From: Opitutales bacterium
GTDB taxonomy: Bacteria; Verrucomicrobiota; Verrucomicrobiia; Opitutales; PNEW01
DNA length: 64,000 nt
Direction: 5' to 3'
Assembly: GCA_965197745.1 (NCBI GenBank)
Contig: CBDANS010000007.1
Span: forward strand, 704,001-768,000
Numbering within the stretch: position 1 is the first letter of the stretch; every line of letters begins with the position of its first letter. The notes beneath the pieces were generated by a model. The model searched no databases and had not been told where the DNA came from. It saw only the letters and a list, made by a program, of their open reading frames with translations. The position numbers were made by a program, and so were the translations under genes. This document shows positions 7,815 through 58,840 of this stretch, piece after piece.

Positions 7815-7870
7815 ACTTCATCCCCCCAAAAGATAGCCACATAAGGCACAAGATATACAAAAAAGAAAGT

Positions 7871-26987: not shown

Positions 26988-27235
26988 TCTTCGTCTTCGT
27001 CTGCCTCCTCGTCTTGGTCCACTTATACCCTAATTACTAAATAATAATGGGTATTAAATCTGAGACTGTTATTCATACTTCCCAACGGACGCTCCGTCGT
27101 GGCCGCTTAAGAGTGTGATTAAACAATGGGTAGAAATTTATATAGGTTATATGTTATACTCAAAACACTTTCTAATTTGTGCTTTTGGAAGATCTCACTT
27201 CGCTCGGTAGTGGCTATCTCAATCCAGGGACCAAG
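26988..27235 (+). repeat. Composite repeat: family A, collapsed REP pair, then segment B (reverse complement of 48528-48810)
   Basis: A body 26988-27090; 27091-27235 aligns with the reverse complement of about 48528-48680. Confidence 0.85.
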
Positions 27236-29506: not shown

Positions 29507-29673
29507 CCTGGAATGGAAGATGTCGTCCCGCTACAGGGGGACTCGGTAGCTTCGTCATTTTGCTCCTCGCAATGACAATAGGAGTGAAACCTGTAAGAAC
29601 ATATTTAGAAAATACTATCAATTTAATAATTTGTCATTGCGAGACCTGCAACCGCAGGACGAAGCAATCCAGG
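29507..29673. repeat. Inverted pair of GTCATTGCGAG...GAAGC(A)ATCCAGG elements (family D); the left copy carries an inserted module
   Basis: Minus copy 29507-29576 and plus copy 29633-29673; further copies at 41827-41895 (+) and 42130-42164 (-). Confidence 0.85.
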
Positions 29674-40982: not shown

Positions 40983-41753
40983 TTGATGATTCGTTTGGCC
41001 CAAGTTAAAATATACCCCAACAAGGGTAAGTTAAAAGAAAACCAGTCCTTGTTGATGGGTGTTCTCCAGGGAGTAAGACAATTTAAACCCGATGTTGTTA
41101 TTGCTCCCGAGTGTTTCCTGGACGGTTATGTTTCAACTGAAGAATATGTGACCAAAGAGAATATTAAAGAATACGCAATTGATCCGGAAGTATCTGAATA
41201 CACGAAGGAAATAGCTGGATGGTCAAAAGACAATAATGCATGGTTTATATATGGCTGCTCCAGACTGACACAAGAAGGGGTATGCAATACCGCTCTTATT
41301 TTTAATCGGGAGGGGAAAATAGTGGGTAATTACGATAAAGTTCACTGTCAAATTCATGACCAGAAATACCTGCCGGGACAGAGTATCCCTGTTTTTCAGT
41401 CTGATTTTGGTTTATTCGGCGTATTGATTTGTGCTGATCGGAGATGGCCTGAAGCGGTGCGCTCGATAGCACTGAAAGGCGCGCGAATAATTTTCAATCC
41501 GACCTATGGGGCGCATGATGATTTAAATAAGCATATGATGCAGACACGGTCCTATGAAAGTGAGATCTTCATTGCTTTTACTCATCCCGGACAATCATTG
41601 GTGACCGGCCCTGAAGGAGAAATATTAAAAAATGAAGAATCTGAGAATGCTGAATTTACGATCACCGAGATCGATCTCAGTGATGCTGACTCCGCGCGTC
41701 AAAAAGGCCTTGCTCATTTAAAAGATCGCCGACCGGAGGTATATTTTAAGTGA
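40983..41753 (+). CDS. Carbon-nitrogen hydrolase (nitrilase family)
   Basis: Glu-Lys-Cys triad: APEC, YDKVH, LICADRRWPE. Confidence 0.9.
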   Translation: MMIRLAQVKIYPNKGKLKENQSLLMGVLQGVRQFKPDVVIAPECFLDGYVSTEEYVTKENIKEYAIDPEVSEYTKEIAGWSKDNNAWFIYGCSRLTQEGVCNTALIFNREGKIVGNYDKVHCQIHDQKYLPGQSIPVFQSDFGLFGVLICADRRWPEAVRSIALKGARIIFNPTYGAHDDLNKHMMQTRSYESEIFIAFTHPGQSLVTGPEGEILKNEESENAEFTITEIDLSDADSARQKGLAHLKDRRPEVYFK

Positions 41754-42276
41754 GTAAAAAGGAGAAAAGCAGGTATTTCTTATCCTGGAGGGACGAGGAC
41801 GAAGGCGTTCCTTCTATCTCACTATTGTCATTGCGAGGGAGGTTATCAGCCGACCGCGGCTACCGAGCGCAGCGACATCTTCCATTCCAGGCGAATAGTC
41901 ATTGTGCTTACGGATTCCAGCTTCCGCTCAGATCTTACTTATGAGGGTGCGTATCATGATTTCTAATTATAAGTAGATAATATTATTAAAACATTCCAGC
42001 GACAGCCGAGGATGAGGATGATCGTGGCCGCTTAAAACATGGGTAACTAATTGTACAATGTAGATCGGCAATTGTATTACTTAGTGAAGCCTTGCATGCA
42101 GGGCCTGTAATTATGCAATAGACATCCCCCTGGATTGCTTCGTCGTTTCACTCCTCGCAATGACTATAGAGAGTTAGTGAAAAATGGATACGAATATTAT
42201 TATCCATCACTTGCGTAATGGGCTATTTTATATCGCCCTTACGGGGTTTAGAAGAATCGAGTAAATCATCACTCAA

Positions 42277-42417
42277 TGCCTCCTCGTCTTCAATTGCCCC
42301 AATAACTTAAAATATGTTGTATTAAATCCAGTCAATTTCTCGAATTACCCAACGGTCACGGTCAGCCGTCGCCCCGCAACCGCGGGGCTATGGCTGACAA
42401 GTATCGCATTGCCCTCC
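42277..42417 (+). repeat. Degenerate family A element with a 40 bp module (42362-42401) in its REP loop
   Basis: CGGTCACGG|TCAGCCGTCGCCCCGCAACCGCGGGGCTATGGCTGACAAG|TATCGCATTGCCCTCC. Confidence 0.8.
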
Positions 42418-42532
42418 ATTTGAATAAATTCCCATCGGGAAGTGGAGGTTACTTTAAAATATACTTCTCCCGCTTAAACTCGTATACCCATATCCGCGTC
42501 ACCCTTTTTGCATCATCTGACTGCAATCAACG

Positions 42533-42562
42533 AAAAACCCACAGGATGTACCTGTGGGTTTT
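42533..42562 (-). terminator. Intrinsic terminator of hup (possibly bidirectional)
   Basis: AAAAACCCACAGG-ATGTA-CCTGTGGGTTTT, about 35 bp after the hup stop. Confidence 0.8.
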
Positions 42563-42597
42563 GTTCCCCCTGTTGGTTTTAATTATTGAAAGATTTC

Positions 42598-42873
42598 TTA
42601 AACAGAAGCTTTAAAGGCTGCACCTGGCTTGAATTTAACAGACCTGGATGCTTTTATTTTAATCTTATCTCCGGTTTGAGGATTTATACCGGTTCGAGCA
42701 GATCGTTTAGAAACAGAAAAAGTTCCGAAACCAATTAACTGTACGGATTTCTCCTTTTTTACTCCCTTTTTAATACTATCCAATACAGCGTCAACGGAAC
42801 GTTCGGCTGCAGCTTTGGAAGTATCGCCACCGAGTGATTTTTGGACTTGAGCAACTAACTCAGCTTTATTCAT
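42598..42873 (-). CDS. hup: DNA-binding protein HU
   Basis: MNKAELV, VQLIGFGTF, ARTGINPQTG, KFKPG. Confidence 0.97.
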   Translation of the reverse strand: MNKAELVAQVQKSLGGDTSKAAAERSVDAVLDSIKKGVKKEKSVQLIGFGTFSVSKRSARTGINPQTGDKIKIKASRSVKFKPGAAFKASV

Positions 42874-43156
42874 AGAATGACTCCTTTAAGAATTTATAAG
42901 ATATTCAGAATTGAACGAACAGATATGAATTGGTTTAAAATAAATTGCGTCAATAAAATTCATAACTAATTTTAATATTTTTTTAAATATTTGGATGGGG
43001 CGCTTTCCCTTTGTCCTTGCGATAAGCGGAGCGACCATGTTATTCAGTAGGTTGAATAGCTTGTTGCAGTTTAAGGATGTACTTTACAACTTTTACTTAT
43101 GTGTGCTGATAAATTTTCTTACTGAAACCTAAGACCTAAAACTTCACACAGAAAAT

Positions 43157-44101
43157 CTAAGGATTTTCTTTTTTTTGATTCTTTTTGAAAAAAACCACCG
43201 GCGTATCGTTAGGCTCGAGGGAGAGACCTGACAGATTTTCGACAGTTCGTTTTTTCAAAAGCGCATGACCAATCCAGGACTTGCCATCATAAGCTGCACT
43301 GCATAGTTGTCCGACGACACTTTCCTGATCATACAGATCGCAGGGAAGCGTGGGGGGTATAGGGATCTCACCGTGAATAGAGTAAATTTTACGTTGAACC
43401 TGGCCCATGGAATGTAAGCGCGCCATTACTTCCTGACCAAGGAAGCAGCCTTTGTCGAATGAGATGGTGTCAATCTCCAGGGCCCCTTCCTGGGGTAAGT
43501 CATCTGGCCCTATGTCATTCGGTATAGCGGGGATACATGATTTCAAACGTTCACAGTGAAGATCTTCATCGGAAGCCCAGGACACCGCCTCACTATCGCC
43601 GAACGCTTCAATTTGAGATTTAATGGCTTCAATTTGAGCGATAGGAAGAATGAGATCGTAATTGTCCTGCGTGGAGCGTCTGCCGTGTATAAGGTATTTA
43701 CCGGATAATTCACCAAAAGATCCAGTACTCGGCTCATTAAGTCCGATTTGATGGAGAAAAAATGCGGCATTTTTACCCCAACAGGAGATGGCAGCTACCG
43801 TTGAAGTGAGATCTTCTAACTCCACCTCATCAGCGATTATGTTCTCTTCCAATTTATCGAGAATCGAACGTGCTGGGCAAAAGTAGCTGAATAACAGGTA
43901 TCGGTTTTCGTCAGTCTGGAATATAAAACTATCGGCAATGGTCTTGCCTTTTCGAGTGAGCCAGAGTCCATAGATGACCGGCTGCGGATTTTCCCGTTGC
44001 AGATCATTGCTGAACTGACTTTGTAAAAAAAATGACGCATCCTCACCCGTAACCCTTATCCAGGCAGCTGGTTGATACTGATAGAAAAATGTGATGCTCA
44101 T
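43157..44101 (-). CDS. ygfZ: Folate-binding Fe-S assembly/repair protein YgfZ
   Basis: VTGEDA..FLQSQFSND and the signature KGCFLGQEVMAR. Confidence 0.9.
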   Translation of the reverse strand: MSITFFYQYQPAAWIRVTGEDASFFLQSQFSNDLQRENPQPVIYGLWLTRKGKTIADSFIFQTDENRYLLFSYFCPARSILDKLEENIIADEVELEDLTSTVAAISCWGKNAAFFLHQIGLNEPSTGSFGELSGKYLIHGRRSTQDNYDLILPIAQIEAIKSQIEAFGDSEAVSWASDEDLHCERLKSCIPAIPNDIGPDDLPQEGALEIDTISFDKGCFLGQEVMARLHSMGQVQRKIYSIHGEIPIPPTLPCDLYDQESVVGQLCSAAYDGKSWIGHALLKKRTVENLSGLSLEPNDTPVVFFKKNQKKENP

Positions 44102-44173
44102 CTAAAATAGTCAAAAGGTCAAAAAGTCAAAAAGTCAAAAAGGAATGGGTGGTCATGTATTTAATATAAAAAT

Positions 44174-44268
44174 GGAGGGCCATGCTCCGTCATGGCCGCC
44201 AAAAATAATCGGTGTCTGGCAATAATAATTTCTAACTTTATCTCGGACACAAGGGAGTGCGTCCCTCC
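44174..44268. repeat. Inverted REP-like pair with GGAG outermost
   Basis: GGAGGGCCATGCTCCGTCATGGCCG (44174-44198) and CGGACACAAGGGAGTGCGTCCCTCC (44244-44268). Confidence 0.8.
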
Positions 44269-44391
44269 AGGATAAGTCATTCCGACTTTTGACCTTAGAC
44301 TCCACCCTCACAGGGATTTTATCTTGCCCCGGGCTTGTTAAAGAATCAGGATTGATAGTTTGTCATTATATCAATTTAAGTAATTCAGACG

Positions 44392-45459
44392 ATGCCCCAG
44401 GTAACAGATATAAATGTTGTATCCACGACCCCGCTTCCCTCACCGCAATCATTTGTAAATGAGGTCGCTCGATCTGAGGAGGAAGCGGCATTTGTTGCCG
44501 ATGCCCGCAAAAAGATTCATAAGATTATTTTTGGTGGTGATAAACGACTTCTTGTCATCGTAGGCCCTTGCTCAATACACGATGTGAGTGTAGGGCTGGA
44601 ATATGCCCAACGACTGGCTGAGCTATCAAAAAGAGTTTCCGACCGGATCTATCTTGTTATGCGCGTCTACTTTGAAAAACCACGCACCACGGTTGGGTGG
44701 AAGGGGCTTATTATGGATCCGAAGATAGACGGAACCTGTGATATACCGGCCGGTCTTTTAATAGCGCGCCAATTTCTTCGGGATGTTATCAAATTGGGCA
44801 TGCCGACCGCCACGGAACTTCTCGACCCCATCACACCACAATATATCGCCGACTATATCTGTTGGTCGGCAATCGGTGCCCGTACCGCTGAATCTCAAAC
44901 CCATCGCCAGATGGCATCGGGTTTATCTATGCCCCTGGGCATTAAAAACGGGACAGGAGGCAGTTTGCAAGTAGCAGTCAATGCCATCAAGGCTGCCATC
45001 CATTCACAGACTTTTCTCGGTATTGATCAAAAGGGACAGGCTGCTGCAGTCACGACCCGAGGTAACCCTAACTGTCATATTATATTGCGTGGCAGTCAAA
45101 ATGGGACCAATTACCATCGTCAGGATATTTCGGAGACAGAGAAAATACTTGGCGACAATAAACTGATCCCCGCCATCATGGTTGACGCCAGTCATGATAA
45201 CAGCGGTAAAGATCACACAAAACAACCAGCCGTCATTCACGAGATCGTCGAGCAGATCAACGAGGGGTGCGAAACCATCATCGGCGTCATGTTAGAGAGT
45301 AATCTCAAGGGTGGAAGACAGAATATCCCCGATAAACGTGAAGAAATCATCTATGGGCAGTCTATCACCGACGCTTGTATTGATTGGGAAACAACTGAGG
45401 CGCTCATTCTTGAAACCTATTCTGCCCTGGAAAGTCGGTTTTCACCCGTTGTCTCATAA
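44392..45459 (+). CDS. DAHP synthase class I-alpha (AroF/G/H type)
   Basis: VGPCSIHD, MRVYFEKPRTTVGWKG, AIGARTAESQTHR, VDASHDNS, YGQSITDAC. Confidence 0.96.
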   Translation: MPQVTDINVVSTTPLPSPQSFVNEVARSEEEAAFVADARKKIHKIIFGGDKRLLVIVGPCSIHDVSVGLEYAQRLAELSKRVSDRIYLVMRVYFEKPRTTVGWKGLIMDPKIDGTCDIPAGLLIARQFLRDVIKLGMPTATELLDPITPQYIADYICWSAIGARTAESQTHRQMASGLSMPLGIKNGTGGSLQVAVNAIKAAIHSQTFLGIDQKGQAAAVTTRGNPNCHIILRGSQNGTNYHRQDISETEKILGDNKLIPAIMVDASHDNSGKDHTKQPAVIHEIVEQINEGCETIIGVMLESNLKGGRQNIPDKREEIIYGQSITDACIDWETTEALILETYSALESRFSPVVS

Positions 45460-45493
45460 TATTTTTATCAATCGTTAAAGTATAATATAATAG

Positions 45494-46477
45494 ATGAAAG
45501 AACCCATACGCGTTGGTGTTACTGGAGCCGCCGGACAAATCGGCTATGCTCTCCTCTATAGAATAGCTTCTGGCGCCATGTTTGGACCGGAACAACCCGT
45601 CAGTTTAAATCTTATCGAAATACCACCTGCCATGGATGCCTTGAATGGGGTTGTGATGGAACTGGCAGATTGTGCGTTCCCCCTTCTCAAGGACATTGTA
45701 CCCACTTCAGATCTCGATGAGGGTTTCAAGAATGTCAATTGGTGCCTGCTCGTAGGGAGTGTGCCGCGTAAAGCGGGAATGGAGCGCAAAGACCTGCTGG
45801 GTATTAATGGAAAGATTTTTGTCGGTCAGGGAAATGCCATTGAAAAAAATGCGGCTGGCGATGTCCGCGTGCTCGTCGTGGGCAACCCCTGCAATACCAA
45901 TTGCCTCATTGCCATGAATAATGCGCGCAGCATACCCTCCGATCACTGGTTTGCAATGACGCGTCTCGACGAAAATCGAGCTCGCTACCAGCTCGCCGAC
46001 AAAGCGGGCGTGGCTATCTCATCGGTTAGCAACATGACCATCTGGGGGAATCATTCCGCGACCCAGTACCCGGATTTTTACAATGCGAGAATCAACGGTA
46101 ACAGCGCTTTTGAAGTAATAGATGATGAAAAATGGCTTAAGGATGAATTTATCCCTATCGTGCAGCAGCGCGGAGCAGCCATTATTAAAGCGCGCGGCGC
46201 TTCATCTGCGGCTTCAGCTGCTAACGCCATTGTTGGTACTGTCATGTCGCTTACCACCCAGGGATCCGACGATGACTGGAATAGTGTGGCCGTCTGCTCG
46301 GATGGTAGCTATGGGACCCAATCAGGATTAATTACCTCTTTCCCTGTTCGCAGTGATGGGGATAAGTGGGAAATCGTCCAAGGGTTACCGGTTAATGACT
46401 ACAGTCGCACTAAAATCGACGCTTCCGTGGCTGAATTAGCTGAAGAGCATTCGATGGTTTCTGAATTATTGTCATAA
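45494..46477 (+). CDS. mdh: Malate dehydrogenase
   Basis: [47 protein letters not shown]. Confidence 0.98.
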
Positions 46478-46527
46478 TTCACAACATCGTTAGTCAAAAA
46501 TGGAGAAAATCTAAGGATTTATTTTTT

Positions 46528-46667
46528 GGAGAGCCACATGGTGCCTGTCAGCCATAGCCCCGCGGTTGCCGGTTGCGGGGCGACGGTTGATTGTGGCCGA
46601 CAGGGATATTTAATACCGACGGTGTTAATCCTACTCTATCCGCGGACGCGACGAAGCGCGTCCCTCC
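46528..46667. repeat. Inverted REP-like pair; the left REP carries the hairpin module (46544-46590, with a 7 bp internal duplication)
   Basis: GGAGAGCCACATGGTG|CCTGTCAGCCATAGCCCCGCGGTTGCCGGTTGCGGGGCGACGGTTGA|TTGTGGCCG ... CGGACGCGACGAAGCGCGTCCCTCC. Confidence 0.85.
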
Positions 46668-46725
46668 ATTAAAACGCATCACCGCATTCACGCATTTACG
46701 CGTATACCTTTTGACTAATAGACGG

Positions 46726-47571
46726 TCATCTCCCGAAGAGCATCTTCCCTAACATTTGCCAGATACTCATTCCTCCGCCTTGCTGTTGCTGTTGACCTTG
46801 GCTCTGGCTGCTTCCACTGCTGCTTCCGCTGCCTCCTCCTTGTCCGCTCTGCCCTCCACCACTCGAAGCGCTCTGTGAACTCTGACTGTTGCTCTGGTTC
46901 TGGTTTGAAGAAGAATTATTCTGCATTTGACCCATTTGACCGCCGATCTGCTGGATCTGTTGCTGGCCGGACATCGAGTTGGGTTGACCGGGCATGCCAC
47001 CTATAGGTTGACCCGAATCACTGCTTTGTTCGCCCATGACTTGAGTCCCTAGCGCTCTACTTGAGGGATCCGCCGTAATAATTTGGCCCCCTTCCATGTT
47101 TCGCGAACCTGAAGCTGCACCCATCGCTCCACCATCGATCTCGGCTACCTGCAGTCCCTCCTGATCCATATCGCTACCGCTGCCTCCAAGAGCCTGTTCA
47201 AACATATCATGATTAAATTGCCACACATAGATCTCGCTATTTTGCAGATTGGGGTTTTCGAAGGTTGCCAGATCAACAATGTCCTGGAGTTCAAAGCTTT
47301 TCTGTTCTGCTGTCAGGTAATCTTCAACGGGTCCAAAATAGTAAGTGAGATTTTCGTGACTGTACCTGATATAATAACCCTCCACATCAGGAATGTCACT
47401 GGATACATCAATGCCTGGGTACTTCTCCTGGAATTTATCAATAGATAAACGGCCACTGTCATAGATCGCCTCTATCGGTAAAATGAGAGACTTGCCGAGG
47501 AGTGCCGTTACTCCGGAGAAAATAAAAATTCCAATACCGGCTGCTCTGATTAAATTATATATTAAATCCAT
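46726..47571 (-). CDS. Hypothetical exported protein with Q/G/S-rich tail
   Basis: ATG at 47571 just after the upstream stop; signal-like N-terminus, about 100 aa globular region, low-complexity tail ending MSIWQMLGKMLFGR. Confidence 0.7.
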   Translation of the reverse strand: MDLIYNLIRAAGIGIFIFSGVTALLGKSLILPIEAIYDSGRLSIDKFQEKYPGIDVSSDIPDVEGYYIRYSHENLTYYFGPVEDYLTAEQKSFELQDIVDLATFENPNLQNSEIYVWQFNHDMFEQALGGSGSDMDQEGLQVAEIDGGAMGAASGSRNMEGGQIITADPSSRALGTQVMGEQSSDSGQPIGGMPGQPNSMSGQQQIQQIGGQMGQMQNNSSSNQNQSNSQSSQSASSGGGQSGQGGGSGSSSGSSQSQGQQQQQGGGMSIWQMLGKMLFGR

Positions 47572-47581
47572 CTGATGATTT

Positions 47582-48340
47582 TCAGATATCGGAAGGAATA
47601 GTATCGCCTTCCTCCATACCCAGTGACTGACCCTTATTTTTACCAACCATGGGTTTCTTTGGATTTGTGGCACCGGCATCAGTTTGAATACTTTCGTTGT
47701 CGGTTCCCTCCATTTTGATGATATCAATCATCTCCGAAGGATCGCCCACTGACACTTTTGCCATTACGGGTCTTCCCGATTGGCCCATCTGCCCGGGTCC
47801 GCCTTGCTGGCTTTCTTCATCCGCAGTATTTCCACCCTGCTGTTCCTCCAAGGATTCCTCACCAGTGCCTCCCATACCTTCCTGTTCTTCGGCCTCAGCG
47901 AGCGCTGACTCATCGACTTCTTCCAATTCTCCTCCTAAAGCGCCTTCAGTATCTTCTTCGATCATTTCAGATTCGTCGCCAAATCCTGATCCTTCTTCTC
48001 CTTCCTCACCTTCTTTGCCTTCCTGGTCGCCTTCACCTTGTCCTTCACCTTCGCCTTGCTTTTCACCTTCCCCTTTTTGATGCTTACTGCTTTCTTTACC
48101 TTCGACTCCCTGGTTCTGTTGCTGACGGCCTTCAGTATTCATGGGACCGGGGATACCCATTTGGGGCCTTTTCTGCAGTATTTTCGCTAAAGATGACATC
48201 GGGCTTTTTTCTGGGGGAATTTGTGAGCCGTCAAAAATGTCAGGGTCCGGTGCCGGCACAAACTGCGCCATCGCTAGTCCTGACCAGGAAAAGGCCAAGA
48301 CGATCAATAGTGTTGGCAATTTAAATGTATTTATACGCAT
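47582..48340 (-). CDS. Hypothetical secreted acidic Glu/Gly-rich protein
   Basis: Signal peptide ending AMA-Q, then a mostly low-complexity E/G/Q sequence. Confidence 0.7.
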   Translation of the reverse strand: MRINTFKLPTLLIVLAFSWSGLAMAQFVPAPDPDIFDGSQIPPEKSPMSSLAKILQKRPQMGIPGPMNTEGRQQQNQGVEGKESSKHQKGEGEKQGEGEGQGEGDQEGKEGEEGEEGSGFGDESEMIEEDTEGALGGELEEVDESALAEAEEQEGMGGTGEESLEEQQGGNTADEESQQGGPGQMGQSGRPVMAKVSVGDPSEMIDIIKMEGTDNESIQTDAGATNPKKPMVGKNKGQSLGMEEGDTIPSDI

Positions 48341-48457
48341 CGTTTATGGAATTCCTACTTATTATCTTAGAAAAGAATGAAGGACCATTAGTTCCTCAAT
48401 ATATTAAATATTAAGATTTATCTCACTGGCAAATAATAAGTACGATTCTTCGCTCAC

Positions 48458-48810
48458 ATCTTCGTCTTTGCTTGCCACGGCGTAGTCTCGCGATCGCGAG
48501 ACGAAGACGGGTCTGCCTCCACGTTCTGGTCCTTGGATTGAGATAGCCACATAAGGCACTACCGAGCGAAGTGAGATCTTCCAAAAGCACAAATCAAGAA
48601 AGTATATCGAGTCTTAATATTTTCCTAAAAAATTCCTATATATTGTATGATCATGCTCCTAAGCGGACGCGACGGAGCGCGTCCCTCCAGAAAAGGAAAA
48701 AATGGAGGGCCACGCTCCGTCGTGGCCGCTTGGAAGTTTGAGAAACTGTCTTAGATTTAATACCTATGATTTAGTAATTAAGGTAAAAGAATACACAGAC
48801 CAAGACGAAT
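48458..48810. repeat. Full composite repeat: GACGAA-type end with 41 bp module, segment B with 23 bp module, inverted REP pair (48664-48688 / 48704-48728), family A on the minus strand
   Basis: Each part aligns with copies elsewhere in the window (23710, 27091-27235, 6661-6822). Confidence 0.88.
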
Positions 48811-48830
48811 ATTAAACAAAGCCGTCCTAC

Positions 48831-50555
48831 TCACATACGCTCATTGCAGACAACTTCGATGATGGGCAAATCGCGGCCGGAGCGTACTCGCACCTCATAA
48901 ATAACTTCCTGGTACCCTTTTCGGCGTCCACGGACAATGTAATTTCCGGGTAAAAAGCTTTCGGTCTGTTGTCCCTTGAATTTACCGAGCATCTTATAAC
49001 CGGATACACTCACCCAGGTTTGGCCGTCGGAGGCAAAGACCAGTTGTGAGGGTCTGCTTTGATCTTTCAGGAGCTTTTGAAGTCCACGAGCTCTGTCATC
49101 GAGCGATAAGTAATCAGGTTTAAGAGCCATCGCCGCGTTAAAATCTCTAATCGCCTCTTGATACTCGCCACTGGCTGCTTTTTCCTCCGCGATCTCTAGA
49201 AAATTCTCAAAACGAAGAATCGCGCGAATAATCTTACCCGCCTGGACCAGACCTTCGGTCGCCTCGTCGTGGCCACTCTCTATATCGAGGACTTCCTGGT
49301 AGGCATCGCGCGCCTTGTACCAATCGTACTCATTTTCATAATAGCGCGCTCTGTCCAGAGCATCGTTTATAAGGTATTGGCGCTTTAACTCTTTTGTCTT
49401 GGCGATAGCATCTTTCGGGTCTGTGCGATCGGGGTAAACTTTATAAGCCGCCTCATAATGTTTGATAGCTTCATCCCAAGACTTATCTTCGACCGCGCTT
49501 TCCGCGTATTCTAATAATTGGTCGTATTTATTGTCCTTAATTGTTTTCGCGAGCCGGTATTTTCCCTGTTGCGCTTTAATCGACAACGGATCGATTTCAA
49601 ATGCCTCCTCGTAGGCAACAAGAGCCTCATCGAGATTCCCTTTTTTCTCCTGTATTTCGGCCTTACCGAGGAGCGGATACACCTGGTCGATGGTCTGAGC
49701 ACGAGTCAGGTTATTCGAGGCCAATTCGATGTCCGGTTGAAGCCTGAGAATATCTTCAAATAAAGTGATGGCTGTATCTTTGTCACCTGAGGACAGTGCT
49801 TTTTTCCCATTCAATTCCAATACCGACAATTTAGTGATAATCTTGTTTTCCATGGTTTTCATGGCACCAATACCGGCAGTAAAAGAATTTAATGCATCAT
49901 TGAATATCCCAGCCTCATAAGCGTTTCGTCCTTCCTCACCATATTTCACCGCTATTTCAAATTCGAAAGGGGCGAGCATGCGGATTTTTTCATTTTCTTC
50001 GATAAGAACGAGAAATTCATCGTAACGGGTAGTTGCCTGCTCCTTGAGCGCGATGAGCGCTTTAAATTCCTCGATCAGTACCTGGATACGGTCATATACT
50101 TCCATTGCCTGAGGATAAGAACCGGAATCGATATATTTATCAGCTAATTCAAAATCGTTTTCAATAACGAGAAGTTTGCGCAATAAGGTTTCATGTTCAT
50201 CGGTGAGCTTTTTTACAATCTCAAGCGCACTGTTGGCTTCAGCGCGGAATCGATCAACGCGTTCACGGCTGACGAACCGGTATTTCGTTCTTTCGGTGCC
50301 CAGGGGTGTACTATCCAAAGCTTCCTGGGTGGCTTTGGTATCGTCATCCTGTAATGTTTCTCGCAAACCGGGAATGGGGATGAATAAAATTATCGCTATG
50401 GCGATCAATAGACCCCCACCAATGAAGATGATGGTTTTTTTTGACTTTTTTTTCGGTTCTTTCTCCGGAGGAGAACCGTGAGTCTCTTCAGGGTTCCAAT
50501 GAACGATCTTGCGACGTTTTACCCTACCCATTTCCTGTTCACTATCGTCACTCAT
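48831..50555 (-). CDS. Membrane-anchored TPR protein with C-terminal PEGA-like beta domain
   Basis: Basic N-terminus and one TM, repeated A..Y..A..IDP helices, C-terminal LPGNYIVRGRRKGYQ. Confidence 0.75.
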   Translation of the reverse strand: MSDDSEQEMGRVKRRKIVHWNPEETHGSPPEKEPKKKSKKTIIFIGGGLLIAIAIILFIPIPGLRETLQDDDTKATQEALDSTPLGTERTKYRFVSRERVDRFRAEANSALEIVKKLTDEHETLLRKLLVIENDFELADKYIDSGSYPQAMEVYDRIQVLIEEFKALIALKEQATTRYDEFLVLIEENEKIRMLAPFEFEIAVKYGEEGRNAYEAGIFNDALNSFTAGIGAMKTMENKIITKLSVLELNGKKALSSGDKDTAITLFEDILRLQPDIELASNNLTRAQTIDQVYPLLGKAEIQEKKGNLDEALVAYEEAFEIDPLSIKAQQGKYRLAKTIKDNKYDQLLEYAESAVEDKSWDEAIKHYEAAYKVYPDRTDPKDAIAKTKELKRQYLINDALDRARYYENEYDWYKARDAYQEVLDIESGHDEATEGLVQAGKIIRAILRFENFLEIAEEKAASGEYQEAIRDFNAAMALKPDYLSLDDRARGLQKLLKDQSRPSQLVFASDGQTWVSVSGYKMLGKFKGQQTESFLPGNYIVRGRRKGYQEVIYEVRVRSGRDLPIIEVVCNERM

Positions 50556-50889
50556 CTCTCTATGTAATCAAATCCTCTTATTAGAAACCCGCTTACCTGA
50601 ATTATTTCAACCTAAATGTCTAATGATTATAATATTAAACAGTTTTTAGAAAACAAAGTCAAAAGGTCAATATGGGGAGAAGTGTAAATGCGACAATGTG
50701 AGAATGCGGATAGAGAGAATTCATAGGCGATCCACACTACCGATAGATTCCCCGAACCCCGACTCTTTCTAACGACTCACGCACAACTGAAACCCGACAC
50801 CTGAAACCCTATTCATTCTTCCCTGAACCCTGAACCCCGAATCTTTCGACCTTCGACCTTCGACTTTTGACGAAGGGGGACACTACGGT

Positions 50890-53800
50890 TTACCGTTGTC
50901 CACCTTCAAATCGTATCCTCGGATCGAGCCACATGAGGAGAAGATCGCTGACCAGTGTGCCAAATACTCCCAGCATGCTGAGAACCATCAGCATCGAACC
51001 GGCTAAATACATATCTTCGGTCATCAGGGCTTCCAGCATCATTGGGCCCACGGTGGGCAGGCTTAAGACCATCGCCACGATCGCTCCTCCCGATACGAGC
51101 TGCGGAAATAAAATACCTATTCCCGAGATAAAGGGGTTAAGCGCGATCCGTACCGGGTATTTCAAAAGCAGCTTAAACGGTCTTACGCCTTTGGCGATCG
51201 CGGTGACTACATAAGGTTTCTTCAATTCATCGAGTAAATTGCCGCGCATCACCCGGATCATGCTTGCGGTTCCCGTTACCCCCAGGACCACGACCGGCAT
51301 CCAGATATGTTGCATCAGGTCAACTACTTTTCCTCGGGTCCATTCTGGTTGAGTTGCGTACTCGGGTGAAAATAATCCCGTCATACTGATACCGAAATAA
51401 ACGCTGCTCCAGTACATGAGTAATAACGCGAGGAGAAAGCTGGGCACGCACATCCCGATAAACCCGAGAAGGGTGAAAAAGTAATCACCGATCGAATACT
51501 GGCGCACCGCGGAATAAATACCGATGGGTAGGGCGACGGCCCAGGTAAAGAGAACCGAGCCCAGCGAAATTAAAAATGTCAGGAGGATACGGTCGCCCAC
51601 CACTTCATTTACGGGCTTTCGGTTTTGCATGGAAAAACCCATGTGCCCCTGCAGGAGCCCCTGGTCCGCTGGATCAAATGAGAGGAACCAGGGTAAGCCT
51701 AGCCAGTGAATATACTGGTATATGATCGATTCATCGAGGGGAAAGAGCTCACGTAGTTGTTCGGCTTCGGTTATGGCCGTTTGATCGTTCGTTAATTCGG
51801 CTTGTAGTATTTTCAAATCTACAAAATTACCCGGAGGCAATTGGATAATGGTGAAGGCGATGACCGATATGACGAGCAGGGTGGGCACCATGATGAGAAA
51901 ACGCCTCCCGACATAAGGATGCTTTACTCCGACAAGAACCAGTCCGACGACGATACAACCGTAACATAATAGACGGATTAACCGGCTGAGGATTTCACCA
52001 CTACTGAGGTCAGCATGTAATCGGTCAGTTGAATAGGGCGATGGCGCGATATCAACCACCTCTCGCTTGATCTGCGCTATTGCGCCGGGGGAATCCTTCG
52101 GGTTTTCAAAAAAGAAGGTTTCGAATCCGCTGCTGGAAGGGCTCTTATAGAGTGAGGCATAGATGGCTTTACGCGGCACGTTTCTAAAATCTTTCTTAAC
52201 GATCAACACGCTGGGAGGTGATGTCGCAATATTGATATTCCAAAGATTTTCCGCCGCAATATTTTGGATTTTATTATAAATTTTTACCTGCTCCTCAAAT
52301 GTGAGCGCGCTGTAAGCGGCATCAAGCAATTCCATGGATCTTCTCAGGGGGTGACCGATCGGAGGCTCAATGCGACCGGGTTTTTTCGACTCGGGGTCGC
52401 CGTAAAGACCGCCATTTTGGTACCAGAGCGCGTAGCCTGAAGCTTCAATGCTTCCCGGAGAAAAACGATCAATTGAAACTAATGGATGATACTCACCCTC
52501 AACACCCCAGATGTGAAAATCCAATTTGCGGGCGGGCCGTTCTGCATTGAGAAGATTCATGGACCGTACTCTTTCAATGGTATTTAGACCGACCTTTTTC
52601 CAGTCTTCTGCGACAAAAGAGGAGGGGCCTTCGCTGAAATTGGGAACCATGTTTAAATACCATGCCATGCGGGTGCCGTCTTTAAAGGTGCGGAAGCCCT
52701 CGGAATCACGCCCGGTGAGTCCAATTTCATCGAATAGTTGATTGGCGCGTTCGGGGTTGTACTCGATATAACTTTTTTTAAACTTCTCATTGTAAAAGGG
52801 AGATTCTATCCCCGGTGAATTCTGTGACGGTTCTCCATATCCATGGTAAACCGCATCGATGATTTGCTGGCGATTAATGGCGAGGGAGAGAGCTTGACGA
52901 AAACGCTTGTCGTTGAGCAATTCCCATTTATTACGGGTCTTCGGATCATTGGGATCCACGTAGCGATTGAGATTGGGGTATAATGTCCAGTCGGAACAGC
53001 CCGAAGCATACCAGTGGTAGACGTCATAGTTCCCGGCATCACGCTGTGACATAAACAGAGTATAATGAAAATAGTAGATATTAAACCCCTGCATCGTAAT
53101 GGCCCCATTGGCGGCGGCAATGGGGACCAGTCTTTCCGTTTTTACGTCCATCATGAAACGGTCGACATAGGGCAACTGATTTCCCCGGGTGTCGACGGCC
53201 CAGTAATAGGGGTTGCGCACATAAGCCTGGGGAGGATTGGCTTTGTAAGTTCGGTAGATCCAGGGCCAGATGCGGGGGTGCTCCGGGTTGTTGACCAGCT
53301 TTAAGGTAATATAAAGAGCATCTCTTTTGGTTATTTTATTTACCCTCATCATGGCTTCGATGAGATCGCTGTTTCCAAGTATGGGATGATAGGACTCCAG
53401 GTAGTGGCGAGGTGAGAAAAATTCAACGGTCGGAGCCAGGCGCTCAAGCAGCAATGAGTGAGAGACCGGAAAAATAAATTTCACGGTGTGAGAATCTACC
53501 ATGATGATCTCTCCCTTTTTACCCCCCACTTTCATAAAAGCGGGAAACCCGATGATCTCGTCTTTTACTTCGTGCTCCCACCAGTAGAGAATATCACCTG
53601 CGGTGAAAGGATGCCCATCGGACCACTTCATTCCCTTTCGAATGTAAAATGTCCACTCCTTTTTATCGGGAGTGACGTCCCAGCGCTTCGCTATATGAGG
53701 TACAATGGGATACCCCATTGGTGACCACCGCACCAGGCAGGATCCGGACATCCAGGAGTCAATCGCCGTCAGGGTTTGTGGGCTGTTTGTCACCATGTTC

Positions 53801-54174
53801 CAAGTGCCCCCGTAATTTCCGATACCGTCAACCCCCTCGATTACCACTGGTTCAGGTCCCACCCGTTCCGCGACGGGGGGCAGTTTTCTCTCTTTAACCA
53901 GATCCGCTAGAATCGGTGACTCATTTTTCGGGTACCATGCGGCGGACGGGCCCTCCGAGTAATCGACATCCCGCTGCACCGCGAATTGATCCTCTTCACT
54001 GAAAGTAAAATCCCAGAGCTTTTCCTGTTCCTGCAGCTTTTCCAGAGGGTAAACTATCGGCTCCACCTCCAGCTCCGGCTTAGTCACCCCCCCTCCGAAA
54101 TAATAAAGACAGAAAATGAAAAAGCCCGTTATGAATAAAAAAGTAAATTTTGGTAAAATCACTTTTTTATTCAT
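50890..54174 (-). CDS. Fused ABC transporter: family-5 substrate-binding domain plus OppB/DppB permease, copy 1
   Basis: LPPVAERV, GMKWSDGHPFTA, RNPYYW..D..GNQLPY, FRQALSLAINR; then IIQLPPG, the EAA loop YVVTAIAKG, and DPRIR. Confidence 0.92.
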   Translation of the reverse strand: MNKKVILPKFTFLFITGFFIFCLYYFGGGVTKPELEVEPIVYPLEKLQEQEKLWDFTFSEEDQFAVQRDVDYSEGPSAAWYPKNESPILADLVKERKLPPVAERVGPEPVVIEGVDGIGNYGGTWNMVTNSPQTLTAIDSWMSGSCLVRWSPMGYPIVPHIAKRWDVTPDKKEWTFYIRKGMKWSDGHPFTAGDILYWWEHEVKDEIIGFPAFMKVGGKKGEIIMVDSHTVKFIFPVSHSLLLERLAPTVEFFSPRHYLESYHPILGNSDLIEAMMRVNKITKRDALYITLKLVNNPEHPRIWPWIYRTYKANPPQAYVRNPYYWAVDTRGNQLPYVDRFMMDVKTERLVPIAAANGAITMQGFNIYYFHYTLFMSQRDAGNYDVYHWYASGCSDWTLYPNLNRYVDPNDPKTRNKWELLNDKRFRQALSLAINRQQIIDAVYHGYGEPSQNSPGIESPFYNEKFKKSYIEYNPERANQLFDEIGLTGRDSEGFRTFKDGTRMAWYLNMVPNFSEGPSSFVAEDWKKVGLNTIERVRSMNLLNAERPARKLDFHIWGVEGEYHPLVSIDRFSPGSIEASGYALWYQNGGLYGDPESKKPGRIEPPIGHPLRRSMELLDAAYSALTFEEQVKIYNKIQNIAAENLWNINIATSPPSVLIVKKDFRNVPRKAIYASLYKSPSSSGFETFFFENPKDSPGAIAQIKREVVDIAPSPYSTDRLHADLSSGEILSRLIRLLCYGCIVVGLVLVGVKHPYVGRRFLIMVPTLLVISVIAFTIIQLPPGNFVDLKILQAELTNDQTAITEAEQLRELFPLDESIIYQYIHWLGLPWFLSFDPADQGLLQGHMGFSMQNRKPVNEVVGDRILLTFLISLGSVLFTWAVALPIGIYSAVRQYSIGDYFFTLLGFIGMCVPSFLLALLLMYWSSVYFGISMTGLFSPEYATQPEWTRGKVVDLMQHIWMPVVVLGVTGTASMIRVMRGNLLDELKKPYVVTAIAKGVRPFKLLLKYPVRIALNPFISGIGILFPQLVSGGAIVAMVLSLPTVGPMMLEALMTEDMYLAGSMLMVLSMLGVFGTLVSDLLLMWLDPRIRFEGGQR

Positions 54175-54533
54175 GACGGGCGTCGAAAAGCGAAGCGAAC
54201 TCCGCCGTTTTAGGTGTTAAGTGTTAGGTTTAAGGCTATTCAGTCGTATCTTTAAAAGTTAATCATAATAAGCCAGTTCACCAAATTATACCATATATGT
54301 TTTATTGAATTTCCTTACCTAAAACCTAACACCTAAAACTTAACACAGAAAATCCTTGGATTTTCTCCCCCTTCCCTGTCTTCCTGTAAAAATTAATTTA
54401 TCTTTTATGTGTTTCTTGCCTGCCGGCCATAGTCCCGCAACTGCGGGACGGCGACCGGTGACTTTGGAAAATCTCACTTGGCTCGGTAGTGGCTATCCTC
54501 TTCTTCTTAGACCTTCGACTTTCGACTCGCGGT

Positions 54534-57500
54534 TCACCGAACGCCCCCTTCAAAACGTATCCTTGGATCGAGCCACATGAGAAGAAGATCACTGACCAGG
54601 GTGCCAAACACTCCAAGCATACTGAGGACCATCAGCATGGAACCCGCTAAATACATATCTTCGGTCATCAGGGCTTCCAGCATCATCGGGCCTACGGTGG
54701 GCAGGCTTAAGACCATCGCCACGATCGCTCCACCCGATACGAGCTGCGGGAATAACATGCCTATTCCCGAGATAAAGGGGTTGAGCGCGATACGCACAGG
54801 GTACTTTAAAAGTAGTTTAAACGGCCTTACGCCTTTGGCTATCGCCGTGACGACATAAGGCTTCTTCAATTCATCGAGTAAATTGCCGCGCATCACCCGG
54901 ATCATACTTGCCGTTCCCGTCACTCCCAGGACCACGACCGGCATCCAGATATGTTGCATCAGGTCAACCACCTTGCCCCGGGTCCATTCCGGTTGGGTCG
55001 CGTACTCGGGTGAAAATAATCCCGACATGGTGATACCGAAATAAACACTGCTCCAGTACATGAGTAATAACGCGAGGAGGAAGCTGGGCACACACATCCC
55101 GATAAAGCCGAGAAGGGTAAAAAAGTAATCACCGATCGAATACTGGCGCACCGCGGAATAAATACCGATGGGCAGAGCCACGGCCCAGGTAAACAGAACG
55201 GAGCCCAGTGAAATCAAAAAAGTCAGCAGGATGCGGTCGCCCACCACTTCATTTACGGGCTTTCGGTTTTGCATGGAAAAACCCATGTGCCCCTGGAGCA
55301 GTCCCTGATCTGCAGACTGAAATGAGAGAAACCAGGGCAGACCTAACCAGTGGGTGTACTGGGTGATGATCGGTTGATCGATGGGAAAGATTTCACGCAG
55401 TTGTTGGGCTTCTGTTATCGCCTTTTGATCGTTTGTTAATTCTGCCTGTAATATTTTCGAGTCTATGTAGTTTCCCGGGGGCAGTTGGATGATCGTAAAC
55501 GCGATAACGGAAATTACGAACAGGGTGGGCACCATAATGAGAAAACGCCTTCCAATATAAGGATGCTTCACGCCGACAAGAACTAATCCGACGACTGCTA
55601 TACCATAGCAGAAAAAGCGGATTAACCGGCCGAGGATTTCACCACTGTCACTTACGTGAAATATTCTTTCAGTCGAGTAGGGTGATGGCGCAATTTCCGT
55701 CACCTCTCGTTTGATTTGCGCGACGGCGCCGGGGGAATCCTTTGGGTTTTCAAAGTAGAAAGTTTCAAATCCACTGCTGGAAGGACTCTTATAAAGAGAA
55801 CCGTAGATGGCTTTGCGCGGAACATTTCTAAAATTTTTCTTAACAATCAGTACACTTGGTGGAGGGGTTGAAATATTGATATTCCATAGGTTTTCCGCCG
55901 CGATATCCTGAATTTCACTGTAAATCCTTACCTGTTCCTCGAAAGTAAGCGCGCTATAAGCGTCATCGAGCAATTCCATGGATCGCCTCAGGGGGTGATC
56001 GGGTGAGGGTTCCGTGCGACCGGGTTTTTTCGACTCCGGGTCGCCGTATAGACCGCCATCTTGGTACCAGAGAAAATAACCTGCAGCCTCAATGTGTCCC
56101 GGTGAAAAACGGTTTAATGAAACTAATGGGTGATACTCACCTGCAACTCCCCAGATATTGAAATCCAATTTGCGGGCCGGCTGTTCCGCGATGTGAAGGT
56201 TATAGGACCGCACCTTTTCAATCGAATTGATGCCGACCTTTTTCCAGTCATTTGCGACAAAAGAGGAGGGGCCTTCGCTGAAATTTGGAATCATACTTAA
56301 ATACCATGTCATGCGTGTGCCGTCTTTAAAGGTACGGAAACCCTCGGAGTCACGTCCGGTGAGCCCGATTTCGTCAAGCATTTGGTTGGCGCGTTCGGGA
56401 TCATATTCGATATAGCTGTTTTTAAGCTTCTCATGGTAAAAGGGAGATTCCCTTCCCGGTGAATTCTGTGCAGGTTCTCCATATCCGTGGTAAACCGCAT
56501 CAATAATCTGCTGGCGATTGATGGCAAGGGAGAGGGCTTGCCGAAATCGTTTATTGTTAAGCAATTCCCATTTCTTACGGGTACTTGGATCATTGGGATC
56601 TATATAGCGATCGAGATTGGGATATATTGCCCAATCGGAAGAGCCAGATTTATACCAGTGGTAGACATCGTAATTTCCAATATCACGATGTGACATAAAC
56701 AAAGTGTAATGAAAATAGTAGATATTAAAGCCCTGCATCGTTATCGAGCCATTCGATGCAGCGATAGGTACCAACTTTTCTGTTTTCACATCGACCGTAA
56801 AACGGTCGACATAGGGTAACTGGTTTCCCAGGGAGTCAACGGCCCAGTAATAGGGATTGCGCACGTAGTTCTGAGGGGGATTGGGTCTGTAGGAGCGGTA
56901 TATCCAGGGCCAGATGCGTGGATGTTCCGGGTTGTTGCTCAACTTTAAGGTAATGTATAGAGCGTCTCTCTGGGTGATTTTATTTACCCGCATCATCCCC
57001 TCGATGAGGTCACTGTCCCCTAGGGTGGGGTGATAGGGCTCCAGGTAGTGGCGGGGTGAAAAAAATTCAATGGTCGGAGCTATGCGTTCCAGCAATAACG
57101 AGTGAGAGTAGGGAAAAATTAATTTCACGGTGTGAGAATCTATTTTAATGATGTCACCCTTCTTACCTTTTAATTTCATCCATGCCGGGAATCCAATAAT
57201 CTCGTCTTTCACCTCGTGCTCCCACCAGTAGAGAATATCATCCGCGGTGAAGGGATGGCCATCGGACCATTTCATGCCCTTGCGCAGGTAAAACGTCCAC
57301 TCTCTCTTGTCAGGAGTAGCTTCCCAGCTTTTGGCTACATGAGGGACAATGGGATACCCCATCGGTGACCAGCGAACCATGCAGGACCCGGCCATCCAGG
57401 CTTCAATATGATCCAGCGTAGCGGGGCTGTTCGTTACAATATTCCAGGTCCCCCCGTAATTGCCGATGCCATCGACCCCCTCGATGACCACCGGTTCGGG

Positions 57501-57818: not shown

Positions 57819-58328
57819 AATGGGTTTTTAAGCTAAAATCCTGGGTAAATGAGTAACAATGAATTATAGCCACAAAATACACAAAAAAGAGAGAAAGATT
57901 TTACAGGAAGGCCGGGAAGAACGGGAAGTATAATAAGTTGGAGCGTTATATATGCCTACTACAGAACCGCTGCTACGGATCGGCTGATCACTGATAACGC
58001 GTATTAAAAATAAATTTTTAAACACGTTATTGGTAATAGCCATAGCTCAGATACACCCTGAGTAATAGTACGTATACATAACGCCCCAAAAGATCTTATA
58101 CTATATAAAAAAATCCGTGTAAATCCGTGGTTAAATATATTGTGAATTTGAAAAATAACCTCTGAATCTCTATTTGTGTGCTTTATGTGGCTATCCTCTT
58201 CTCCTTAGACTTTCGACATTAGACCTTCGACTCCCCAATTCAGATTAACTTAATATTGCATTCATGCGAATTAATACTTATTTAAATGATTTTAATTCTA
58301 AATATAATTAAAGCAAAGAAGGAGAACT

Positions 58329-58526: not shown

Positions 58527-58840
58527 AAAGAAAATCATTAGATTTTCTGTGTTAAGTTTTAGGTGTTAGCTGCCGTCGTATAAACTAGGGCGTACCAGGG
58601 ATTTTAAGTAGAGTTTGAATCAATCTCTCTCTTTCTATTTATAGCTTTGTCACCTAAACACGTGGCAAGCCATCTTTTCGGCGACGATTGGTGCCTTTGA
58701 AAGATCACGCTTCGCTCTGGTAGTAGCCTACCTCTTCTTTTTCTCCCCGCTTGCCACGCCATAGCCCTTAGCGACGGCAGGGCCTTCGACTCTTAACTTA
58801 AAACCTAACACCTAAAACTTAACACATCCCTATTTAGACG

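Follow-up and report, generated by a model that had tools for sequence, protein, structure and literature searches.

A 23-nucleotide repeat in an Opitutales genome: the smallest form of a probable family of miniature non-coding insertion elements

Within a 64,000-nt stretch of the genome of an Opitutales bacterium (the window, C7:704001-768000 of a 4.45-Mb assembly of seven contigs with 45% G+C, hereafter G000), a 23-nt sequence at 48560-48582 recurs inside repeats that are otherwise unrelated to each other. We find that this 23-mer is the shortest form of a family of small units, here called modules, each consisting of the 7-nt left arm TACCGAG, a variable hairpin at the centre and the 12-nt right arm CGACATCTTCCA (left and right as read on the TACC... 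strand). On balance, we think it somewhat probable that these modules are miniature insertion elements without coding capacity, of which the 23-mer is the smallest, and that they moved into many unrelated sequences and were then copied together with these hosts. The preliminary description of this DNA had proposed that the module moves independently. Independent insertion is supported by the many different combinations of its flanks, by the separate occurrence of module and host in related genomes and by insertions into insertion sequences (IS) of the IS3 family whose outgroup copies are empty; the mechanism of movement is one that we infer. Repeats that carry modules are referred to below as hosts A, B, C and D, host B being the GAAGC^A(A/T)TCCAGG family of the preliminary description. 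A host site with a module is called filled, and the same site without one is called empty. Coordinates without a contig prefix are positions in the window.

Architecture of the module

A search for the 23-mer gave four matches in the window, compared with none in 100 dinucleotide-preserving shuffles. To count the family as a whole, G000 was searched by pattern for the two arms; 104 matches were obtained with at most one mismatch at each end and 184 with at most two, against 17 for the reversed pattern. Removal of nested matches from the 184 left 159 copies, and the copy number of the genome is about 165. The full unit consists, in order, of TACCGAG, the centre, CGACATCTTCC and an A. Among the 104 closest matches the predominant lengths are 23 nt (39 copies), 27 nt (28), 34 nt (19), 24 nt (7) and 28 nt (4), the seven 24-nt copies in G000 forming a subfamily with one extra A in the left arm. 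The unit had been described as a micro-module of 23 bp; that sequence is real, but it belongs to a family in which the arms are fixed and the hairpin varies, and it is not the only form. The accompanying statement that its boundaries are the same in two unrelated hosts is borne out and extends to all hosts; conservation in 100 copies, sampled across four types of host, is 90-100% for the left arm and 77-99% for the right. The base after ...CTTCC is an A in all 100 of these copies, and we therefore assign this A to the module, as its final base, in preference to the host.

The hairpin is formed by the centre read together with the preceding G. In the 23-nt form, a GC-NNN-GC hairpin is present in 33 of 42 copies, compared with 6.1 in shuffled centres, and its loops are GCA (20 copies), GTA (6), GAA (5) and TCA (2). 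A 4-bp stem occurs in 22 of the 31 copies of 27 nt (1.2 when shuffled), with loops that are mostly GAA, AAA or GTA, and a stem of at least 5 bp in 11 of the 18 copies of 34 nt (0.2 in shuffled centres). In short, the 23-nt hairpin can be described as GC-GNA-GC and the 34-nt hairpin as a stem of 6-7 bp. There are 22 distinct centres among the 31 copies of 27 nt and 17 among the 18 copies of 34 nt; the centres differ and yet the stems form, so that structure has been kept through sequence change. Judging from the sequence, the GA on both sides of the hairpin could add two G·A pairs. The two arms of the module are not complementary to each other, and there are no terminal inverted repeats. Some copies have the usual left arm and hairpin with a diverged right arm (GACATCC-N-TCA or GACACACTC), for example those at C6:523294, C7:670195, C7:1521775 and C6:327752. 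Such copies were missed by the census, and the family is therefore larger than counted.

Filled and empty sites

Insertions in the genes of two IS3-family elements come close to de novo insertion into a unique site. Forty-two copies of the first, IS-A (approximately 1.33 kb), cover one site, at which 35 are empty and seven are filled. The empty site reads GGGCTTAC-AG-T8 and the filled one GGGCTTAC-TACCGAGCGTAAGCGACATCTACC-A-T8; on the opposite strand, this is the A8 slippery run between orfA and orfB. By our reading of the frames, the empty element would keep the usual -1 relation of orfA to orfB, and the filled form would not. Distant copies of IS-A in the genomes G016 and G012 are empty, which makes the insert the derived state. 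Filled copies are also found in G001 and G002, two genomes from another genus of the same family, at 95-97% identity; a housekeeping orthologue is only 69-72% identical between these genomes, and the filled IS lineage has therefore moved between them. IS-A as a whole (C6:552736-554071, locus L076, with about 41 other copies) comprises two recently expanded clades of near-identical copies. Its DNA identity to the G001 and G002 elements is 88-97%, against a housekeeping protein identity of 69-72%, which suggests IS exchange between these genera.

The second element, IS-B (C7:150715-152091, locus L125, about 40 related copies), has two inserts, both starting with TACCGAG and ending with CA. At site 1, an insert of 44 nt lies between CCCTGGC and AACGG, adds a net 42 nt and separates SPW from QNG, parts of one conserved stretch, in frame. 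At site 2, a 37-nt insert after GCGATG adds a net 35 nt and brings a TAG stop codon into frame. At either site, 23-28 other copies are canonical. Among the 36 copies that could be scored at both sites, 23 are empty at both, eight are filled at both, three are filled at site 1 only and two at site 2 only. Two of the three IS-gene inserts disturb the reading frame. In midpoint-rooted FastTree trees of both elements, empty copies group in tight, young clades, with filled copies on longer branches among and below these. This pattern fits either repeated hits on old copies or the spread of defective copies with some recombination.

The genome-wide motif search with in silico excision that had been suggested for this module found junction-spanning empty paralogues for 46 of the 159 copies. 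Host B is one arm of a palindrome of about 103 bp that resembles a miniature inverted-repeat transposable element (MITE), and it consists of GTCATTGCGAG, a variable hairpin, GACGMRGC, the insertion point and AATCCAGG. By pattern match, G000 has 188 such arms, about 130 of them empty (six of these matches look spurious) and 58 filled, one arm having been re-scored from its sequence. The 57 pattern-scored filled arms carry modules of 23 nt (29 arms), 24 nt (1), 27 nt (11), 28 nt (4) and 34 nt (12). After excision, the filled arm at C6:596333 is 97.5% identical over 80 nt to an empty arm 500 bp away, and that at C7:1497281 has an empty counterpart with 98.7% identity over 76 nt. In 41 pairs of facing arms, 16 pairs have no module, 21 have one and four have two; if arms were filled independently at a frequency of about 0.3, roughly 20, 17 and 4 such pairs would be expected.

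At the sites with known empty copies we found no target-site duplication; one or two bases (AA or AG) following a G or C are lost or changed. In IS-A, C-AG-T becomes C-module-T. In IS-B, C-AA-A becomes C-insert-A at site 1 and G-AG-T becomes G-insert-T at site 2. In arrays of AACCCTG, G-AA-C becomes G-module-C, and in host B, GC followed by AATCCAGG becomes GC, the module with its final A, and TTCCAGG. The absence of a duplication together with the loss of one or two bases is not the mark of a DDE transposase. Members of the family have entered their many unrelated hosts in one fixed orientation. The left flanks end in GCCAC, GCGGC, GAAGC, AATCG, CCCTG, CTTAC, CTGGC or CGATG and have only a last base C or G in common. 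Elements of the IS200/IS605 type insert 3' of one fixed tetra- or pentanucleotide; the flanks of the module, which share no tetranucleotide, are unlike such targets.

The junctions also bear on the possibility of RNA- or repair-mediated insertion, in which an abundant small hairpin RNA or DNA ending in ...CCA would be reverse-transcribed or captured at breaks and would replace a few bases. Every copy does end in CA, and most in CCA; target bases are lost and not duplicated, and the unit is far too small to hold ordinary transposase ends. We consider this explanation scarcely probable, given that no source gene or master copy was identified, that the 2-bp GNA mini-hairpin is a structure of the DNA type, and that capture at random breaks fails to explain why insertion always follows G or C, precedes A and keeps one orientation.

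Hosts and flanks

The 118 best copies of G000 were clustered by their flanks. They fall into 31 left-flank and 31 right-flank clusters in 46 combinations, and many copies, located in unique spacers, are the sole member of their flank cluster. The preliminary description had reported the module in two unrelated hosts, and it had named as the contrary case that all copies trace to one or two composites without further contexts; that case was examined and is not what the clusters reveal. Host A consists of TAGCCAC followed by 8-9-nt ...GCAC units and has 28 empty-like and 19 filled sites in G000. Host C comprises AATCG-type short tandem repeats and host D tandem repeats of AACCCTG. The host-C copies of G000 show a replication-strand bias, in that the TACC... 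strand coincides with the G-rich strand in 15 of 16 cases. Tandem Repeats Finder detected 891 arrays in G000 with a period of 6-9 nt and at least 2.5 copies, most of them empty; modules are present in four of the 17 AACCCTG arrays, two of the 17 AATCGAC arrays and two of the 79 AAGACG arrays. The commonest array units are AAGACG (79), AACACTT (21), AACAGTG (18), AATCGAC (17) and AACCCTG (17), and the abundance of arrays of this period resembles that of the cyanobacterial heptamer repeats.

Additional hosts are found in other genomes, namely hexamer arrays of the ATCGCT, GATCGT and GGGATC types, AACCCTG arrays, GAACGGTG arrays and unrelated unique flanks. The module and host B can also be found separately, host B without any module in G012 (24 arms) and the module without host B in G040 (five copies). 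Host B and the module are thus doubly dissociated across genomes.

Distribution across genomes

For comparison between genomes we counted matches to the pattern TACCGAG-N(5-16)-CGACATCTTCCA, with the reversed pattern as a control. There were 42 matches in G000, 65 in G001, 82 in G002, and six and five in G015 and G040, which represent other families of the order; 36 other relatives of the same order had none. The reversed pattern gave no match in any of them. In a scan of a database with one genome per species, at least 43 of the 75 loci listed are in seven assemblies titled Opitutales, Puniceicoccaceae or Opitutaceae. The matches listed also include three loci in other assemblies with Verrucomicrobia in the title and 29 single matches in unrelated taxa; by a rough estimate, a few dozen matches are expected by chance. 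Two matches in viral contigs, both in apparent coding regions and neither with a hairpin centre, were taken as chance. Nineteen arm positions are constant across the order, and the copy number ranges from 5 to 82 among the relatives that have the module. The conservation of the arms across the order points to a conserved trans-acting factor.

Position relative to genes

Of 100 copies, 94 lie outside crude open reading frames (ORFs) of at least 120 aa, although such ORFs cover 82% of the genome. Convergent genes flank 36 copies, tandem genes 39 and divergent genes 17; these three kinds of spacer account for 19%, 56% and 25% of spacer length. In the tandem spacers, 17 modules point with the genes and 22 against them, so there is no bias. 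The lack of an orientation bias and the position outside ORFs argue against a strand-specific RNA role and fit tolerated selfish DNA.

These results have to be set against the possibility that selection maintains the module as a cis-acting motif, in DNA or RNA, for the binding of a conserved host factor; function would then explain its conservation across the order, and repeated recruitment its many contexts. Such a site would account for the 19 arm positions kept in different genera and families beside a freely varying centre, for a structure maintained through compensatory changes, and for the finding that the copies at 48560 and 58699 are stable in the populations of three studies. It accords poorly with the even orientation relative to flanking genes, with a position that is not fixed relative to genes, and with the range of copy numbers among related genomes. 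In the orthologous spacer downstream of a tetratricopeptide-repeat (TPR) gene, G001 and G002 have other small repeats and no module. Moreover, copies reside inside other selfish repeats and inside IS transposase genes, one of them altering the frame relation. An Rfam scan of the whole window, with its six copies, returned no match to the module at the gathering score and only an Acido-Lenti-1 motif at 35313-35359. We regard a cis-acting site as a distinctly unlikely explanation of the family.

Composite copying, present-day mobility and the search for a mover

A number of observations weigh against the favoured reading of a family that inserted many times on its own. Much of the further copying is copying of composites of host and module, which explains much of the copy number. 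The proposed independent movement is accordingly upheld for the many separate contexts, but many copies spread as parts of such composites. In every 23-nt row listed, the GAGATC variant has a host-A left flank and the GACATC variant a host-B left flank. The variant follows the left flank also in copies with mixed flanks, at C6:723954 (host B on the left, host A on the right) and at C6:586310 and C7:925667 (A and B); the module at C6:1377391 combines C with B. The mixed-flank copies look as if exchange had occurred within or just after the right arm. Filled host-B arms read ATTCCAGG (33), ACTCCAGG (7) or AATCCAGG (3), and a T follows the module in all size classes; empty arms read AATCCAGG (60) or GATCCAGG (17). 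Since the filled arms share ATTCCAGG where the empty ones have AATCCAGG, host B may have been hit once or a few times, with the central hairpin exchanged later. The internal hairpin of host B, between ...GCGAG and GAC... (for example at 41838-41860), is of the same three kinds as the module centres, a GCGAAGC-like mini-hairpin, a hairpin of about 11 nt and TCCCGC-N4-GCGGGA, in the common frame ...GAG-hairpin-GAC. Exchange of the GA-flanked hairpin in place may be a second process that acts within existing copies and, if so, host B was perhaps entered only once or a few times. Each IS site, too, may represent a single event; all of its filled copies carry the same insert.

Carried to its limit, this line of thought would mean that the module was never mobile alone, but entered one or two repeats once, after which amplification with recombination or gene conversion shuffled the flanks. 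The variants that follow the left flank, the ATTCCAGG shared by filled host-B arms, the chimeric flanks at the four loci above and the single type of insert at each IS site would all be expected. We nevertheless find composite copying very unlikely as the only process. It does not readily yield 31 left-flank and 31 right-flank clusters with many single unique spacers, different hosts in other genomes, or the separate occurrence of host B and module in G012 and G040. In addition, the flanks of the IS-gene inserts are unrelated to any other host and the outgroup copies are empty, so homologous exchange cannot have placed these inserts.

Also on the unfavourable side, nearest-neighbour folding predicts no structure for 30-32 of the 42 copies of 23 nt, and it supports the 27- and 34-nt hairpins weakly (mean z of -0.5 to -1.8). 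The GC-GNA-GC mini-hairpin folds unusually stably as DNA and not as RNA, a stability that is general background and not a value computed for the module. The replication-strand bias of the host-C copies of G000 did not recur in tandem-repeat-hosted copies of G001 (10 versus 7, by a coarse skew from 20 samples of 12 kb). The filled/empty comparison in metagenome populations, likewise suggested with the preliminary description, covered 41001-60000 in four metagenome runs from three studies; it revealed no polymorphism and no 23-nt gap at any module, although all contigs ended at repeats, which makes this a weak test. The copy at 48560-48582 is intact in contigs of runs X1, X3 and X5, and that at 58699-58722 is carried in X1 and X3. 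Of the holders among 22 runs listed for this region, none is recorded as RNA. With a protein identity of 69-72%, G001 and G002 are too distant for their spacers to date the insertion at 48560.

No mobilising gene for the module was found in G000. Its sole Y1_Tnp (HUH) gene, at C6:163380-163706 (198 aa as reported), is flanked by 25-nt inverted repeats of its own, which recur as pairs about 170 nt apart, with 12 sites in all. Because these pairs recur elsewhere, the Y1 gene has its own clients, and no module lies within about 4 kb of it. The larger unit at C6:162757-163803 is an IS200-like Y1 element with terminal inverted repeats; its repeat ends form pairs with a spacing of about 170 nt in at least four other places, and these pairs are its own miniature derivatives. 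Pairs of modules that might bracket a mover in the manner of a REPtron enclose only genes for PhyH, peptidase M20, a pilin-like protein and unknowns.

A further alternative is an element of the repetitive extragenic palindromic (REP) or REPIN type. Passages of PMC3116915 and PMC3733652 describe REPs and REPINs as short hairpin repeats of extragenic DNA that are believed to move in single-stranded form and to leave the target unduplicated; they are commoner downstream of genes, with occasional copies inside genes. PMC3733652 further describes Opitutus terrae as rich in GTAG REPs. If the module were such an element, it would be cut and pasted as single-stranded DNA by a genome-encoded REP-associated Y1 (HUH) transposase. 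The module resembles REPs in its size, its extragenic position, its hairpin core with conserved unpaired flanks and the lack of a target duplication. Spacers between convergent genes are enriched in modules, holding 36 of 92 copies in 19% of the spacer length, and Y1_Tnp genes are present in all five genomes that have modules. However, Y1 genes also occur in 17 of the 36 module-free relatives. The module stem is adjoined by ...CCGAG and CGAC... and not by a GTAG or CGTC tag; a nearby GTAG is confined to the other strand, at a distance of 4 nt from the stem, and to copies in which a C precedes the module (75 of 100 copies). The sequence of the stem is not conserved within the family, as the counts of distinct centres illustrate (22 among 31, 17 among 18). 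In contrast to REPINs, modules are mostly single, both arms being filled in only four of 41 host-B pairs and copies in the other hosts standing alone. In contrast to REPtrons, no module flanks a gene for a REP-associated tyrosine transposase (RAYT), and the Y1 gene of G000 is flanked by its own inverted repeats. On this evidence we judge a REP/REPIN-type origin quite improbable.

A possible mode of movement

Returning to the reading we favour, in which the module inserts on its own and is then copied with its hosts, a unit of this size cannot encode anything and must be moved in trans. The mover would recognise the two conserved arms, which the extruded hairpin could bring together. Recognition is probably on single-stranded DNA, a suggestion based on the stability of the minimal 2-bp GNA hairpin as DNA and not as RNA and on the absence of a bias relative to transcription. 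The preferred target seems to be structured or slippage-prone DNA, such as the arms of palindromic repeats, short tandem repeats and the A8 run of the IS3 element. Once inside a repeat, the module would multiply together with it, mostly as a passenger.

A more far-reaching proposal, which we consider rather unlikely, is that the TACCGAG...CA units (24-44 nt with the final A) are an undescribed kind of ultra-small insertion element with a chemistry of its own. Such an element would replace A-purine after G or C without duplication, would be guided by two short arms in single-stranded form, kept together by a DNA hairpin between GA flanks, and would be moved by an Opitutales-conserved enzyme not yet linked to transposition. 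In a bolder form of this proposal the repeated hits at fixed sites in the transposase genes of two IS3-family elements are no accident, and the elements may act, or be used, as a means of disabling insertion sequences. One of the IS3-gene inserts is at the frameshift window, one splits SPW from QNG and one brings in a stop codon, and it is the old, diverged IS copies that are filled and not the young clades.

Relation to known small repeats

Small dispersed repeats (SDRs) of cyanobacteria occur in many dispersed, non-coding copies, are nested in other repeats including short tandem repeats, and have been identified by comparing host sequences that contain the unit with others that lack it. Elhai et al. 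in 2008 (Genome Res 18:1484) reportedly described SDR4-6 from Nostoc punctiforme and its relatives, with units of about 21-27 nt. The module was called extremely short for a mobile unit; its 23 nt are confirmed, but in view of these SDRs the length is not unprecedented. Like SDRs, the modules of 23, 24, 27 and 28 nt are dispersed units in many copies, although the 34-nt class is outside the 21-27-nt range, and they are nested in repeats for which empty and filled hosts exist (about 130 and 58 for host B, 28 and 19 for host A). The module differs in belonging to the Opitutales of the Verrucomicrobiota, and in its fixed arms, a central hairpin of variable length, arms that are kept across the order and insertions in IS transposase genes. 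Cyanobacterial SDRs are the closest known parallel to the module.

Among other kinds of short repeat, bacterial interspersed mosaic elements (BIMEs), further mosaic repeats and MITEs such as Correia, RUP and Nezha are named in passages of PMC3733652. The intergenic mosaics of several short modules are reminiscent of these, and the host-B palindrome (about 103 bp, with GTCATTGCGAG ends) is itself MITE-like. The module, by contrast, has neither terminal inverted repeats nor a target duplication and is 3-10 times shorter than a MITE. Rickettsia palindromic elements (RPEs) are about 100-150 bp long and are inserted in frame in protein genes. The module shares with RPEs the character of a small hairpin repeat in coding sequence, its 44-nt insert adding a net 42 nt in frame, but there is no sequence relation, only IS genes are seen to be hit here, and two of the three inserts disturb the frame. 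RPEs, too, are mentioned in PMC3733652. Searches by topic and by module and host-B sequence strings found no published description of the module family, supplements and most subscription journals being outside the search.

How units of 20-30 bp, too small for transposase-binding inverted repeats, can spread has been an open question since the cyanobacterial units were described. The module family offers a second, independent system in another phylum, of a kind that is known but barely studied. Its arms are sharply defined, the natural variation of its centre shows which part matters, the three insertion sites in IS genes give clean states before and after with a simple junction rule, and the spread of copy number among related genomes (0, 5, 65 and 82) opens the way to a comparative search for genes. 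The nested mosaics also have practical consequences, in that they break short-read assemblies, with contigs ending at modules, and could be mistaken for regulatory motifs.

Copies in the window and their surroundings

All six module copies reported in the preliminary description are present, four found by the 23-mer search and two by direct reading, and its three empty sites are as described. Without the final A, the copies occupy 48560-48582 and 41861-41883 on the plus strand and 27187-27209, 54466-54488, 58699-58722 and 29515-29548 on the minus strand. The copy at 48560 (48560..48583 on the plus strand with the invariant final A) is an exact match in host A, after one extra ATAAGGCAC unit, and lies in the spacer between two minus-strand genes. 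An identical copy at 27186..27209 (minus strand) directly follows the TAGCCAC of host A. The minus-strand copy at 54465..54488 has two mismatches and the host-A left flank TAGCCAC; its right flank is not that of host A and bears a GTCCCGC-NNNN-GCGGGAC hairpin. At 58698..58722 (minus strand), direct reading identified a copy of the 24-nt subfamily, with the left arm TACCAGAG... and its one extra A, in a host-A-like context. The plus-strand copy at 41861..41884, of the GACATC type with three mismatches, is in the left arm (41827-41897) of a host-B element. This filled arm faces an empty arm at 42119..42164 (minus strand), in which ...GACGAAGC is directly followed by AATCCAGG. The sixth copy, also read directly, is a 34-nt module at 29514..29548 (minus strand) in a host-B arm, with the same arms and a hairpin with a 7-bp stem at its centre. 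A further empty host-B arm at 29633..29673 (plus strand) contains the empty site GAAGC followed by AATCCAGG at 29661-29673. The two empty host-A sites, at 7834..7852 and 57867..57885 (both on the plus strand and read directly), have TAGCCAC followed by A-rich ...CAC units.

The genes around these modules are ordinary and encode a TPR protein, ABC-transporter fusions, a polysaccharide-synthesis protein, a nitrilase-family protein and a GCV_T-family protein. Two of them, at 50890-54174 and 54534-57818 (both on the minus strand), are tandem paralogous ORFs of 1094 aa each, in which a family-5 solute-binding domain is fused to an ABC permease domain. About 80 nt from host A, at 48664-48690, there is another hairpin repeat, GGACGCG-ACGGAG-CGCGTCC, which has a CTCC tail. 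A related form of it occurs in the orthologous spacer of G001 (locus L086), downstream of the TPR-gene orthologue, and the spacers at both places look like mosaics of several small repeat families. Locus L061 was considered as a CRISPR spacer and rejected, only two flanking hairpin repeats being present. Finally, the Acido-Lenti-1 motif (RF01687) at 35313-35359 on the plus strand has ten hits in the genome, four of them above the gathering score and four within the range of the window, and it behaves like another small repeat.

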